The position numbers and the translations under genes were made by a program. DNA of 5,912 nt from a virus. The stretch lies in the IMG/VR virus record IMGVR_UViG_3300045988_001419, positions 1-5,912 of that record; one strand, given 5' to 3'. Each line of letters begins with the position of its first letter. Within the stretch, counting starts at the first letter, position 1. The notes beneath the pieces are model-generated. The model searched no databases and was not told the origin of the DNA. It saw nothing but the letters and a program-made list of their open reading frames with translations. This document shows positions 61 through 2,665 of this stretch, piece by piece.

Positions 61-183
61 TTACAGCCGGATGCCACCACGCATAGGCTTTTTGCTGAGG
101 TTGATGCTTTTGGTTTTTCGTGCGGTTACGTTAAACATATGGCGGTCTTTTGCGCCTCTCATTGCTTTACGATGTCGTGCCAT
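61..183 (-). CDS. Small, highly basic DNA-binding/packaging peptide (phiX174 J-like, gokushovirus ORF8-like), 40 aa: MARHRKAMRGAKDRHMFNVTARKTKSINLSKKPMRGGIRL
   Basis: 13 of 40 residues are Arg/Lys. The C-terminal PMRGGIRL matches my recollection of the conserved C-terminus of the small basic peptides of gokushoviruses. The ATG at 183 is preceded by GAAAGG 9 nt upstream. The ORF track offers an in-frame extension to 258, but neither that ATG nor the one at 222 has a good Shine-Dalgarno. Confidence 0.65.
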   Translation of the reverse strand: MARHRKAMRGAKDRHMFNVTARKTKSINLSKKPMRGGIRL

Positions 184-280
184 TTTTGTGTACCTTTCTT
201 TTCTTTTTTTTGTTTCGTCCATGGTTCCAATTTGCTTCTTCGGTCTGGTCTCGTGCATTCCATGTTTTGTGCATTATGGT

Positions 281-403
281 TTACTCCTTTCTGTCTTCGC
301 TGATGCTATCGTGCAGCGCATGATAGATTTCGTCGAGCTTTTCTAGAATCTGCATCATAATGCGGATTGCTTGCTTGACGTCCTTAATGGAAATCAGTGC
401 CAT
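281..403 (-). CDS. Hypothetical 40-aa acidic helical peptide, MALISIKDVKQAIRIMMQILEKLDEIYHALHDSISEDRKE, translationally coupled to the upstream peptidase gene
   Basis: The ATG at 403 lies 1 nt after the peptidase stop (405-407) and 7 nt after AAGGGGG. The ORF track shows a 72-aa version starting at 499, but that part overlaps the peptidase 3' end and lacks a Shine-Dalgarno. I recognise no family. The peptide is not hydrophobic enough to be a holin. Confidence 0.45.
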   Translation of the reverse strand: MALISIKDVKQAIRIMMQILEKLDEIYHALHDSISEDRKE

Positions 404-404
404 T

Positions 405-797
405 TTATACCCCCTTTCTGTATTTTTTCCCTCTTCGCACATCAAAGTGCACCCAATTGTTGTATACGATAATGCCGCATTCATCCGGAATGATTTCATT
501 CAGTTTGTTGGCAAGCTCTTTTGCGCTTATTCCATCTACCCGGATGTCTGCTGCCATACCGCGCATGTGATAGCTGTATTTTGCTCCTCCGCATTTTGCG
601 TTCCACTCTGGTGTTCTGTATCCGCTGGTGATGATTACCGGCTTTCCTAGTTTATCTCTGAGGATATCCAGAACGGTGTATAGGTAGTCGTCTATGAATA
701 CTACCTGGCTGCCGTCTTTGCAAGCAAATTCTTTTACTTTGAAGTGTCTTGCCAGCTTTACGTTTCCATCTGTGTCCATGATGTAGCTTTTGAGCAT
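405..797 (-). CDS. Zinc D-Ala-D-Ala / peptidoglycan peptidase, M15 family (Peptidase_M15_3 / M15A-like), 130 aa, putative endolysin
   Basis: The motifs are HFKVKEFACKDG (N-terminal), SGYR, SYHMRGMAAD (H77 at 569-567, D84 at 548-546) and WVHFD (H117 at 449-447), which together form the H-x6-D...H zinc triad of the M15 fold. The ATG at 797 is preceded by AAAGGAG 9 nt upstream. The track start at 806 is a TTG. There is no signal peptide, TM segment or cell-wall-binding domain. Confidence 0.85.
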   Translation of the reverse strand: MLKSYIMDTDGNVKLARHFKVKEFACKDGSQVVFIDDYLYTVLDILRDKLGKPVIITSGYRTPEWNAKCGGAKYSYHMRGMAADIRVDGISAKELANKLNEIIPDECGIIVYNNWVHFDVRRGKKYRKGV

Positions 798-819
798 TTT
801 CGTCAACTCCTTTGTTTGT

Positions 820-848
820 ATTATAATTTAAAAGCTCCCGGTCGTCAA
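820..848 (-). promoter_or_regulatory. Sigma70-type promoter P2: TTGACG (848..843), 17-nt spacer, TATAAT (825..820), reading into the peptidase gene
   Basis: I read this directly from the reverse complement. The -35 matches consensus 5/6, the -10 matches 6/6 and the spacer is the optimal 17 nt. The -35 lies in the loop of the 832-858 hairpin. The predicted start is near 813, just upstream of the AAAGGAG Shine-Dalgarno. Confidence 0.55.
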
Positions 849-858
849 TCGGGAGCTT
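832..858 (-). terminator. Hairpin immediately after the 60-aa ORF stop. It is terminator-like on both strands.
   Basis: A 9-bp stem AAGCTCCCG / CGGGAGCTT encloses a 9-nt loop. On the minus strand it is followed by TTTTAAATTAT. On the plus strand it is followed by GCTTTTTATTCTTTTT. It starts 6 nt downstream of the stop codon at 864-866. Confidence 0.5.
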
Positions 859-863
859 GCTTT

Positions 864-1046
864 TTATTCTTTTTCAGTGAAGTATATTTCCATTACTTCG
901 ACTTTGTACAAGGAATAGATCCCCTTGTGTTTGTTTGCGTATTCTCTTGCTCTCTTTTTTGCGTTTTTGGGTTCATCGGTGATTTTTAATACCGTGGTCA
1001 TCGTGTCGTCATTGTTCCAGCTTCTTAACTCGTATTTGTGCATCAT
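864..1046 (-). CDS. Hypothetical 60-aa protein, MMHKYELRSWNNDDTMTTVLKITDEPKNAKKRAREYANKHKGIYSLYKVEVMEIYFTEKE, in a monocistronic accessory (moron-like) cassette
   Basis: The ATGATG at 1046-1041 is preceded by AAGGAAGGTG 6 nt upstream. The track version starting at 1097 is a TTG start inside the predicted promoter spacer, so it is unlikely. The ORF has its own promoter upstream and a hairpin downstream. I recognise no family. Confidence 0.6.
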   Translation of the reverse strand: MMHKYELRSWNNDDTMTTVLKITDEPKNAKKRAREYANKHKGIYSLYKVEVMEIYFTEKE

Positions 1047-1078: not shown

Positions 1079-1107
1079 ATTCTATCATATTTTTCAAAAA
1101 AAGTCAA
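1079..1107 (-). promoter_or_regulatory. Sigma70-type promoter P1: TTGACT (1107..1102), 17-nt spacer, extended -10 TGaTAGAAT (1087..1079), with an A/T-rich UP-like region upstream (1108-1140)
   Basis: I read this from the reverse complement as cTTGACTttttttgaaaaataTGaTAGAATataatcac. The -35 is 5/6, the -10 is 5/6 with a TG extension, and the spacer is 17 nt. It sits at the edge of the noncoding region, about 30 nt upstream of the ORF60 start. Confidence 0.6.
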
Positions 1108-1240: not shown

Positions 1241-1361
1241 TTTCAACACTTTCAACACTTTCAACACTTTCAACAGGTTTTCAACATAAAGTTGCACAAT
1301 GATTTTCGTTATTTTGACGAACTTTCAACAATTCAACAAGTTTTCAACAAAACTTTCAACA
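1241..1361 (+). repeat. Iteron array: nine same-orientation copies of (C)TTTCAACA
   Basis: TTTCAACA starts at 1241, 1250, 1259, 1268 (four perfect 9-bp tandem units), 1279, 1323, 1342 and 1354. ATTCAACA starts at 1331 and a degenerate TTTCAACT at 1408. All copies are in one orientation and in noncoding sequence. Confidence 0.9.
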
Positions 1362-1414
1362 CTGTTTTTTGCTTTTTATTTACGCTCTAACGTTAAATTT
1401 TAGTACTTTTCAAC

Positions 1415-1423
1415 TTTTCCACA
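1415..1423 (+). promoter_or_regulatory. DnaA-box-like 9-mer TTTTCCACA (fits the relaxed consensus TTWTNCACA)
   Basis: This is a direct match to the consensus. Three iterons extended by one T (TTTTCAACA at 1240, 1278 and 1341) differ from that consensus at one position. A single 9-mer match could arise by chance. Confidence 0.3.
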
Positions 1424-1427
1424 TTGC

Positions 1428-1442
1428 CTACTACTACTACTA
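1428..1442. repeat. (CTA)5 trinucleotide microsatellite
   Basis: ctactactactacta is read directly from the sequence. Confidence 0.9.
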
Positions 1443-1462
1443 CAACAAGTTATATATTATAC

Positions 1463-1492
1463 GGCGCTTGTGAGCTTGCGAACAATAGCGCC
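1463..1492. repeat. Inverted repeat GGCGCT ... AGCGCC with an 18-nt loop
   Basis: The arms are 1463-1468 and 1487-1492, the same 6-mers as the 1167-1180 palindrome. Confidence 0.6.
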
Positions 1493-1498
1493 TAAGAG

Positions 1499-1542
1499 CC
1501 GCGCGTGCGCGCGTGCGCGCTTCGCGCGCGTGCGCACGCGCG
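1499..1542. repeat. 44-nt GC-rich alternating purine-pyrimidine tract forming a long imperfect hairpin (candidate ssDNA structural signal, Z-DNA-prone)
   Basis: The sequence is ccgcgcgtgcgcgcgtgcgcgc tt cgcgcgcgtgcgcacgcgcg. There are two 20-nt perfectly alternating R-Y runs (1501-1520 and 1523-1542). Pairing 1502-1520 with 1524-1542 around a 3-nt loop gives 19 positions: 15 Watson-Crick pairs, 3 G-T pairs and 1 mismatch. GCGCGTGCGC recurs at 1501, 1509 and 1526. Confidence 0.85.
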
Positions 1543-1645: not shown

Positions 1646-2665
1646 TTAGAGTGTCCCCTTCTTCTTCATCTGCTTCTTTATCACCCTTTCTTTTGTCCTA
1701 CACTGTTCTGCAAAGTCTGTGCTTTCATACTTTAGCCGGTTTTCTGCTATTGCTGTTGCTTGTCTGTTCTGTTTAATTCTCCATAATCTTTGTGGGTTTT
1801 CAGCTTCCATCATTTTTTCATAATAACGTGGAATTTTTGCTCGTTTGCCGTTTGTGCATTGGATATACCCTTGTTTCCAGATTTCTGCTTTGTGTTCTTG
1901 ATAATAGTGGTCTCCTAAGCCCGGTTTGAGGCTCATACATGCAAAAGGTTTTTGTTGCCCTAGTTCATAGTATGCGTTTGCTTTTTGGCCGTCCATCTCG
2001 TACATTTTTTTTGTAACGTATCCAGCAACATATCTATATGTTTCTGGTACTGCTTGTGCTATCTGTATTTGACCCATGCCCCACAGGTTTTCTAACCATT
2101 TACTTGTGAAATATCCGTTGTGCTGTATCTTGTATAGGTGCTCTAGGTCTGTTGGTCTCCATCCATATAGAATCATATGGAAGTGTGGTCTTGCCGTCTG
2201 TTCTCCGTATTCTCCCGCTAAGAAATAGCGTAATTTGCCCCTATAAGCCTTTCTGAGGCGTTTTAAGAACTTTTGAATGTCAGTATATAGCAAAGTTTGG
2301 ACGCTTTCTGGGCGCTTCTCTCCCGGTTTCCAGGTGTATTGTACTTTTCGCATGATTTCGCCTGTGTTTACTATCATGCCCGGTACATGGTCATCGTCAT
2401 AAGTTAATGTGATAAACCAAACTTCTTCTCTTGGATAGTCTCGTGCTTCTAATTCTATTCGTGTTGTCCAGTCCTCTCTTTGTCTGATTCTGCATCCGAT
2501 GCACTGTCCGCATGGTATCAACATGACATCTTTTCTATACATCAAATCTTCATACTTGAGCTGTTTCCCGCTTATTTCAGAAAAGCGGGCAAGTGAATAC
2601 ACTCGTCCGCTTATGTCTTTGTTTTCCGGGTTGTACAGCCTTATTAATGGCTTGTAACAACTCAT
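1646..2665 (-). CDS. VP4: Rolling-circle replication initiator VP4 (HUH endonuclease, phiX174 A-like), 339 aa
   Basis: Motif I is FITLTY (residues 84-89). Motif II is the HUH element PHFHMILY (H161/H163, near 2185-2177). Motif III is YVAGYVTKK, with two tyrosines spaced YxxxY (Y212 at 2032-2030, Y216 at 2020-2018). The N-terminal PCGQCIGCR cysteine cluster is typical of gokushovirus Rep. An ATGA overlap links it to the VP2 stop. Confidence 0.93.
   Translation of the reverse strand: MSCYKPLIRLYNPENKDISGRVYSLARFSEISGKQLKYEDLMYRKDVMLIPCGQCIGCRIRQREDWTTRIELEARDYPREEVWFITLTYDDDHVPGMIVNTGEIMRKVQYTWKPGEKRPESVQTLLYTDIQKFLKRLRKAYRGKLRYFLAGEYGEQTARPHFHMILYGWRPTDLEHLYKIQHNGYFTSKWLENLWGMGQIQIAQAVPETYRYVAGYVTKKMYEMDGQKANAYYELGQQKPFACMSLKPGLGDHYYQEHKAEIWKQGYIQCTNGKRAKIPRYYEKMMEAENPQRLWRIKQNRQATAIAENRLKYESTDFAEQCRTKERVIKKQMKKKGTL

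Follow-up and report, generated by a model that had tools for sequence, protein, structure and literature searches.

Gokushoviruses are among the most abundant phages of the gut, and among the few clues to how they lyse their hosts, and to which hosts they infect, is a peptidase predicted to act on the cell wall, here pointing to Clostridia. We asked how such an enzyme could reach the wall when the virus seems to encode neither a holin nor an export signal for it. The window (the whole stretch of DNA analysed, 5,912 nt, from IMG/VR record IMGVR_UViG_3300045988_001419) has a 55-nt terminal direct repeat and is therefore a complete genome, circular and 5,857 nt long. It was classed as gokushovirus-type on a circular genome of ~4.5–6 kb with every gene on one strand, together with the expected gene set: all real genes of the window lie on the minus strand, and Pfam and PHROGs searches identified an F-type capsid protein, a VP2 pilot protein, a VP3 of the Chlamy_scaf family, a VP4 Rep and a VP5. 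The database records nearest to the window are classed as Gokushovirinae. In sense order, the genome reads as follows.

5897-5658, minus strand: VP5, first in sense order
~5665-5240, minus strand: VP3 scaffold protein, Chlamy_scaf (Pfam/PHROGs)
5243-3564, minus strand: VP1/F capsid protein (Pfam/PHROGs)
3525-2662, minus strand: VP2 pilot protein (Pfam/PHROGs)
2665-1646 (1646..2665), minus strand: VP4/Rep (Pfam/PHROGs), the gene used to delimit the backbone clade; the peptidase is fixed within that clade
1645-1098: stretch of ~550 nt without convincing genes, between VP4/Rep and ORF60
1250..1466, no strand: non-coding iteron-like array of ~9-bp TGTTGAAAG repeats, between Rep and the peptidase module
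864..1046, minus strand: ORF60 (MMHKYELRSW...), upstream of the peptidase gene, with a Shine–Dalgarno (SD) site
405..797, minus strand: M15_3 zinc peptidase gene, 130 aa plus stop (PF08291, phrog_894)
281..403, minus strand: ORF40 (MALISIKDVKQAIRIMMQILEKLDEIYHAL...), directly 3′ of the peptidase gene, with ribosome-binding site (RBS) GAAAGGGGGTATAAA
274-167, minus strand: truncated 35-aa ORF, next after ORF40 in sense order
61..183, minus strand: VP8-like basic DNA-binding protein (MARHRKAM...GGIRL; phrog_10695)

Past the VP8-like gene the circle closes on VP5. The iteron-like array occurs in either orientation among relatives. An Rfam scan of the whole window returned nothing meaningful.

The peptidase ORF (ATG 797-795, stop 407-405) lies exactly where the original prediction had placed it on the minus strand, and every M15 signature motif quoted for it is present: HFKVKEFACKDG (residues 18–29), SGYR (58–61), SYHMRGMAAD (75–84, with H77-x6-D84) and WVHFD (115–119). 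The codons of the motif residues, all on the minus strand, are at 615-617 (R61), 567-569 (H77), 546-548 (D84), 447-449 (H117) and 441-443 (D119). The protein matched Pfam Peptidase_M15_3 (PF08291, clan Peptidase_MD) at E=6.3e-24, scoring 84.6 bits against a gathering cut-off of 23.2 and covering profile positions 2–108 of 108, and it matched the PHROG family phrog_894 ‘endolysin’ at E=6.8e-43. Of the Pfam models put forward for this gene, M15_3 was the one borne out, whereas VanY (PF02557) and Peptidase_M15_4 gave no match at E<=0.01; Peptidase_M15_2/DUF882 gave a weaker match (E=2.4e-8). An assignment to the MepK L,D-endopeptidase equivalog (NCBIfam NF053624) was rejected, as the score of 46.4 bits fell far under the cut-off of 185; the proteins are related, but the bond specificity of MepK is not transferable to this peptidase.

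In an alignment of 49 sequences spanning 42–92% identity, S58, R61, S75, H77, G80, D84, W115, H117 and D119 were invariant columns, and R61, H77, D84, H117 and D119 were retained in every full-length copy among 92 microvirus genes gathered from GenBank and IMG/VR relatives. Purifying selection was evident: the 1,668 usable pairs gave a median dN/dS of 0.14. Among solved structures, sequence comparison picked up 1LBU alone, the Streptomyces albus G zinc D-Ala-D-Ala carboxypeptidase (MEROPS M15A; E=8.6e-5 with the single sequence, 2.7e-7 with a profile). The GxR...SxHxxGxAAD motif is common to both, the R61–H77–D84 stretch aligning with a GGFR...SRHMYGHAAD segment whose aligned residues we take to be the zinc ligands of 1LBU, but 1LBU is a secreted protein of 213 aa with an additional N-terminal wall-binding domain, and identity is 28% over 90 aligned columns. 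Alignment and invariance suggest that H77, D84 and H117 would surround one metal site.

The structural comparison proposed originally gave a concordant picture at moderate confidence. An AF2 model of the peptidase (pLDDT 72.6, pTM 0.72, moderate confidence) had 1LBU as its top fold match (Foldseek probability 1.00, TMq 0.56, rmsd 2.7) and also matched VanY, VanXYc, LdcB, the T5 and RB49 L-Ala-D-Glu peptidases, LysECD7, ChiX and Hedgehog-N (Shh-N), all matches having Foldseek E >0.001. All of them have the LAS/Hedgehog-DD-peptidase fold, to which we assign the window peptidase with moderate confidence; its likeness to VanY and to T5-type L-Ala-D-Glu peptidases is at the level of fold only. Together, these results make a strong sequence-based case that the window carries a real M15_3 zinc peptidase gene in a gokushovirus-type microvirus, and the product would be expected to be muralytic.

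The following predicted signals surround the start of the gene and that of ORF60.

1079..1107, minus strand: promoter-like TTGACT-17-TAGAAT with an extended −10 TG, upstream of ORF60 (consensus scan)
832..858, no strand: GC-rich hairpin between ORF60 and the peptidase gene
820..848, minus strand: promoter-like TTGACG-17-TATAAT, an 11/12 consensus match, immediately upstream of the peptidase gene
807..812, minus strand: Shine–Dalgarno AAGGAG, 9 nt from the peptidase ATG (SD scan)

The site at 820..848 was the top-scoring one in positions 1–1700 by consensus scan alone, and its −35 hexamer sits in the loop of the hairpin. A TTG at 806 was considered as an alternative start but directly abuts the AAGGAG ribosome-binding site, so we take the ATG at 797 as the real one. 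SD-core matches were found at 7–11 nt in 9 of the 10 window genes, a pattern that would fit a host among the Bacillota or Proteobacteria and speak against Bacteroidota.

The original prediction implied that such a gene was novel, but the same finding was published by Roux et al. (2012; PMC3394797), who described M15_3 peptidases in genomes obtained from human samples, five of gokushoviruses and six of alpaviruses. The authors favoured a horizontal origin, noted an affinity to Faecalibacterium prausnitzii and a holin beside bacterial homologues, suggested that the enzyme serves as an endolysin and speculated on Gram-positive hosts (PMC3394797). The window peptidase resembles those of the Roux gokushoviruses in family, virus group, VP4–VP5 slot, Faecalibacterium/Clostridiales affinity and proposed role, and the window differs in nothing essential from the GenBank ‘peptidase M15’ gokushoviruses KX513868, KX513876 and KX513877. 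Nor are these genes only ‘noted sporadically’. A tblastn search returned 708 phage records with a peptidase homologue, the top ones being gut Microviridae/Gokushovirinae at 63–89% identity, and several top GenBank relatives already carry the label ‘peptidase M15’ or ‘similar to peptidase’. The closest GenBank peptidase is 89% identical (MT121961) and metagenomic relatives reach 92%; over 120 clusters (at 90% identity) had >80% identity to the peptidase, nearly all of them located on contigs of ~6 kb or less.

M15 peptidases also occur in marine Occultatumvirinae (PMC11499846), and the earlier statement that none had been characterised fails in the broad sense: Gp7 of Ebor, a Tainavirinae microvirus of Rhodobacter, was purified and, in a zymogram of 2025, degraded peptidoglycan (PMC11980548). 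By description, Gp7 (~146 aa) is comparable to the window peptidase as an accessory, tailed-phage-like wall hydrolase of a microvirus, although Ebor belongs to another subfamily, has a Gram-negative host and has an enlarged capsid. An M15 peptidase has been a known, ordinary feature of gut gokushoviruses since 2012, and the window is a further member of a very large clade carrying it. What is new here is the fixation of the gene across a clade, the presence of two alleles in one slot, the sharing of the cassette across backbones and the systematic lack of a transmembrane (TM) partner.

The relatives of the peptidase outside the microviruses point to its source. The nearest cellular homologues were ~50% identical at most and came almost entirely from Clostridia (sources included Lachnospiraceae, Oscillospiraceae, Faecalibacterium, Lacrimispora and Dysosmobacter), and the nearest tailed-phage homologues were the endolysin of Faecalibacterium phage FP_oengus (46%) and a peptidase of phage Aster (41.5%). 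With these non-microvirus relatives at ~41–50% identity, the horizontal acquisition by the microvirus that had been proposed is supported, and Clostridia are, on this indirect ground, its likely hosts. A link to the host through prophages was also sought, but none of 48 bacterial-genome loci with a homologue had microvirus genes near it.

The FP_oengus and Aster proteins are, like the window peptidase, single-domain M15_3 enzymes (137–138 aa, 41–46% identical) with the same motif residues, and they differ from it in a short insertion ahead of the WVH motif. Their genes were placed in the tail-proximal lysis region, where a conserved protein with an N-terminal TM segment lies near the peptidase and FP_oengus has an annotated holin as well; the microvirus has neither. 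This homology to tailed-phage endolysins and the precedent of Ebor suggest a role in lysis for the window peptidase.

The lack of a signal peptide or TM segment noted originally was confirmed by hydropathy alone: the maximum 19-residue Kyte–Doolittle mean of the peptidase was 0.73, and its N-terminus is hydrophilic. None of the 92 copies had a hydrophobic N-terminus, their 19-residue means being <=1.55 and located in internal segments, and by the same measure no export signal (signal peptide or SAR domain) was found in any of them. In the window, no coding-strand ORF of at least 25 aa reached a 19-residue mean of 1.6, and we found no canonical holin–endolysin cassette among such ORFs. The phiX174 protein E is likewise a lysis solution of a small ssDNA phage, but E is a non-enzymatic TM protein that inhibits MraY and is encoded by an embedded gene; it has no counterpart on the coding strand of the window, where no hydrophobic ORF of this amurin type occurs in any sense-strand frame. 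The earlier claim that no hydrophobic ORF is embedded here stood for the coding strand. Hydrophobic ORFs do exist antisense (for example, plus strand 360-650 and 32-346), but their frames are not conserved open in relatives, and they are artefacts of reading Lys/Arg/Glu-rich genes backwards. No provider of a membrane lesion was identified within the window.

The two small flanking ORFs were judged not to be holin-like in the original prediction, and our analysis agrees: both products are hydrophilic or amphipathic, unlike the partners in the Faecalibacterium-phage cassettes. ORF60 encodes a non-hydrophobic protein of no family in Pfam, PHROG or NCBIfam, with homologues in only two (L003 and L004) of 13 relatives. 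The ORF40 product belongs to no known family; it is a small (40 aa), helical, amphipathic, charged protein without a membrane span, and the gene with its RBS is conserved in 12 of the 13 relatives. It is nonetheless one of two candidates for a phage-encoded, non-canonical partner in a two-component lysis system, the other being the Gly/Ala-rich N-terminus of VP2 (MGALSGFLTALNVAGNVANTVGTIAGAAKNVAGAFGG). ORF40 lies immediately 3′ of the peptidase in most genomes behind its strong RBS, but the charge of its product counts against it, as does its distribution: it stands apart from the peptidase in L001 and L003, and L068 has it without any peptidase. ORF40 does not appear to be an obligate partner of the peptidase. 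Pilot proteins such as phiX174 H are membrane-active at entry, and among sense segments in the clade mild hydrophobicity is confined to the VP2 N-terminus, which has 19-residue means of 1.4–1.6 in some relatives; the window VP2 falls below 1.4, however, and VP2 is equally present in clades that lack the peptidase. A partner of either kind is, on this evidence, unlikely.

The combined absence of a holin and an export signal could also mean that the peptidase is used at entry, packaged in or attached to the virion, to open the wall locally for DNA delivery. Wall hydrolases are often part of the virion in other groups of phages, and an enzyme acting from outside faces no export problem; with Clostridia as donors and likely hosts, such an activity would be useful if the host wall is thick. 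Ebor Gp7 was detectable in virions, but in trace amounts only (PMC11980548). Against a part in entry, the 130 aa of the window protein make up a catalytic domain and nothing else, leaving no segment for anchoring to the capsid or pilot protein, its tailed-phage homologues accompany holins rather than being fused to tail proteins, and the gene is missing from the sister clade. We consider it quite unlikely that the peptidase is an entry enzyme.

That sister clade provided the most informative comparison. We sampled ~80 IMG/VR genomes with the window-type Rep (clade A) and ~60 with the Rep of KT264789 (clade B), which is 55–57% identical to the window Rep, and restricted the strict count to complete genomes.

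Clade A (window type): 86 complete genomes; peptidase in 86; TM gene ahead of VP5 in 0; VP8–VP5 gap of 15–32 nt
Clade B (sister): 60 complete genomes; peptidase in 0; TM gene ahead of VP5 in 35
Clade B VP8–VP5 gap: ~112–125 nt with the TM gene, 0–6 nt without it

The clade B gene encodes 28–38 aa with a single TM segment, is preceded by an SD site, mostly starts with GTG and ends at the VP5 start. Its product occurs as two sequence types, MNIMIAVGTGATIIAMCSAAFALIAMGIDIIKNWRKSK and MSAVFASMTMAFLAAGFYLVINAINIIKDWFK, and a tblastn search with the sister-clade TM peptide matched four records only, not enough to base a survey on sequence. A first-pass count of 58 TM genes in 62 sister-clade genomes was discarded, as most were a 27-aa ORF in the iteron region or translations of GC-rich repeats. 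In the window, the VP8-like stop is ~20 nt from the VP5 start, which leaves no room for a TM gene of this type, and the VP8–VP5 slot held no TM ORF in any of the 86 clade A genomes. Six clade A genomes have hydrophobic sense-strand ORFs elsewhere; these look like artefacts of the VP1 frame or over-long chimeric contigs (L075, L077), although a 59-aa ORF right behind Rep in L123 so far falls outside this explanation. Two apparently peptidase-less genomes, MG945200 and MG945378, were set aside as partial records that end at the variable region.

Outside these clades, the arrangement varies. The Dulem viruses L005 and L292 have the peptidase together with a conserved ~35-aa TM ORF immediately 3′ of VP2, and in L293 that slot behind VP2 holds a TM-grade ORF; the human-gut, peptidase-bearing gokushoviruses KX513864 and KT264784 had no TM ORF outside the core genes. 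A peptidase without a membrane partner is thus a real yet lineage-specific condition. Since the sister clade lacks the peptidase altogether, the enzyme is not essential for viruses of this kind.

At first sight the counts might suggest that the peptidase replaces the sister-clade TM protein functionally and works without any membrane lesion, by leakage, non-classical secretion or host autolysis: no complete genome of the 146 has both genes, every clade A genome has only the peptidase and 35 of the 60 clade B genomes have only the TM gene. The pattern tracks two clades, however: the 146 genomes are not independent and represent some one or two events, making the pattern weak evidence for mutual substitution. 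Neither gene is present in 25 of the 60 clade B genomes, the Dulem lineage has the peptidase and the TM ORF side by side, and Ebor encodes a 45-aa predicted membrane protein in addition to its hydrolase (PMC11980548). Replacement in this sense is very improbable.

The reading that we favour, and regard as probable, is that the window gene encodes a cytoplasmic endolysin that acts at release and depends on a separate membrane-breaching step. An ancestor of the clade would have acquired the gene from a tailed phage or prophage of Clostridia, out of a lysis cassette whose neighbouring holin was left behind. The promoter-like site of the gene itself would now drive transcription and the strong Shine–Dalgarno sequence translation, and because it has no export signal the product would build up in the cytoplasm. 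Late in infection it would cleave the wall, in its peptide stems or its cross-links, and thereby cause or accelerate lysis. Such an enzyme would be unable to cross the membrane unaided and most likely relies on another membrane-compromising agent; both this dependence and the timing of action are what we infer from the arrangement. The agent would come from elsewhere, the leading idea being the ancestral lysis function of gokushoviruses: that 25 of the 60 sister-clade genomes have neither gene means that a basal lysis route must exist. With a quarter to a half of related genomes having neither the peptidase nor the TM peptide, the most economical account is that all these viruses share a basal membrane breach, with the peptidase then speeding wall breakdown. 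A more specific version, possible but doubtful, is that there is no dedicated holin at all, that core proteins, possibly VP2, breach the membrane and that the TM peptide and the M15 enzyme are interchangeable boosters.

The question of how an endolysin crosses the membrane in such viruses was already visible in the 2012 literature, and the partnerless clade offers a clean system for it in a small ssDNA phage. It comes with built-in contrasts: one clade has the peptidase, its sister has either a TM peptide or neither gene, and the Dulem lineage has both.

The peptidase region (397-813) is 88% identical at the DNA level to MT121961 and the upstream segment 1078-1240 is 91% identical, yet despite this shared cassette the two genomes have capsid proteins only 49% identical and Rep proteins only 38% identical. 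KX513876 has 73% and 80% DNA identity over the same two stretches. Across the cassette-sharing backbones, Rep identity is 38% and capsid identity 44–49%. Within clade A, two alleles that are ~50% identical occupy the one slot, in 68 and 23 copies (92 copies examined). The shared cassette and the second allele indicate that the cassette has passed between gokushovirus lineages and has been replaced on more than one occasion; such recurrent capture and maintenance imply a function on which selection can act. For the L005-type allele, IMG/VR sampling returned mostly tailed-phage contigs of 20–70 kb rather than microviruses.

Across the peptidase module (window ~280–1240), which contains the M15_3 zinc peptidase gene, DNA identity between the window and the relative genomes MT121961 (L001) and KX513876 (L003) was 73–91%, whereas the capsid proteins of these genomes were only 44–49% identical to that of the window and their Rep only 38%. 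Such high identity of the module DNA on very divergent capsid and Rep backgrounds argues that gokushovirus lineages have exchanged an accessory cassette carrying the peptidase. A second peptidase allele, ~50% identical, occupied the same slot in 23 of the 92 copies collected from GenBank and IMG/VR relatives.

Two small open reading frames lie downstream of the peptidase gene.

Small ORFs downstream of the peptidase in the window
281–403, minus strand: ORF40 (MALISIKDVKQAIRIMMQILEKLDEIYHAL...), small helical protein
167–274, minus strand: 35-aa ORF

ORF40 is strongly conserved, has a very strong RBS and matched no known family; it occurs with the peptidase and also in at least one genome without it. 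The 35-aa ORF is a shortened form of a conserved ~75-aa gene in relatives (MHKTWNxRDQ...EIWxxKSFAN.IE.EL..R...NG), of which only the N- and C-terminal ends are kept; the reduced form, found in the window and in one relative (L011), looks like the product of an internal deletion that overlaps the VP8-like gene at its start.

The Rep-proximal non-coding region contains an iteron-like array of ~9-bp TGTTGAAAG-type repeats.

Position of the iteron-like array
Window: 1250–1466
L002: 1213–1430
L001: 2921–3113
L003: 5379–5577

The array was kept both in the peptidase-bearing clade (clade A) and in its peptidase-less sister clade. It lay forward in 141 genomes, and 5 genomes of clade A carried it at the usual position but inverted; two backbones of great divergence had it both inverted and moved to between VP2 and VP4. 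Its apparent ability to work whichever way it points suggests that proteins bind the array on the double-stranded replicative form.

Two further DNA features were seen in this part of the window.

Palindrome and inverted repeats in the window
1500–1542: GC-rich alternating purine–pyrimidine near-palindrome, 43 nt (CGCGCGTGCGCGCGTGCGCG / CGCGCGCGTGCGCACGCGCG)
819–838 and 1584–1603: inverted repeats of 20 nt, 95% complementary

The near-palindrome, which stands in a genome of otherwise 44% GC and has a related repeat in the sister clade, could form a cruciform or Z-DNA. The inverted repeats enclose 745 nt holding the GC palindrome, the iterons, the small reading frame ORF60 and its promoter-like site, and one arm overlaps the −10 region of the peptidase promoter-like site.

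Transmembrane (TM) ORFs were seen in relatives with and without the peptidase. The peptidase-bearing lemur-gut ‘Dulem’ microviruses have a ~35-aa TM ORF immediately 3′ of VP2, and sister gokushoviruses without the peptidase have a conserved, unannotated single-TM gene of 28–38 aa between VP8 and VP5.

TM ORFs in relatives
Dulem, post-VP2: L005 2593–2700; L292 2621–2728
Sister clade, VP8–VP5: L066 4545–4661; L067 4769–4885; L068 5148–5264

The Dulem ORF was kept between L005 and L292 (endings ...AIVDWLKRH and ...AVIRWLNRH) and could be a holin-like partner of the peptidase in this lineage; at the corresponding place L293 also has a TM-grade ORF (~2577–2786). Apparent TM ORFs were left out of account in two IMG/VR contigs with window-type Rep, L075 (8,781 nt) and L077 (10,917 nt), as both are far above microvirus genome length, contain additional AT-rich sequence and are probably chimeric or concatemeric assemblies.

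The sister-clade gene, present in 35 of 60 genomes (L150–L209), has an SD site and mostly a GTG start codon. Its product, a candidate lysis or membrane protein, resembled no PHROG family above noise and occurs as two sequence types, which have the motif IIK(N/D/E)W in common at the C terminus. The window counterpart of this slot is a ~20-nt gap from the VP8 stop (61) to the point where VP5 begins (5897, which corresponds to 40).
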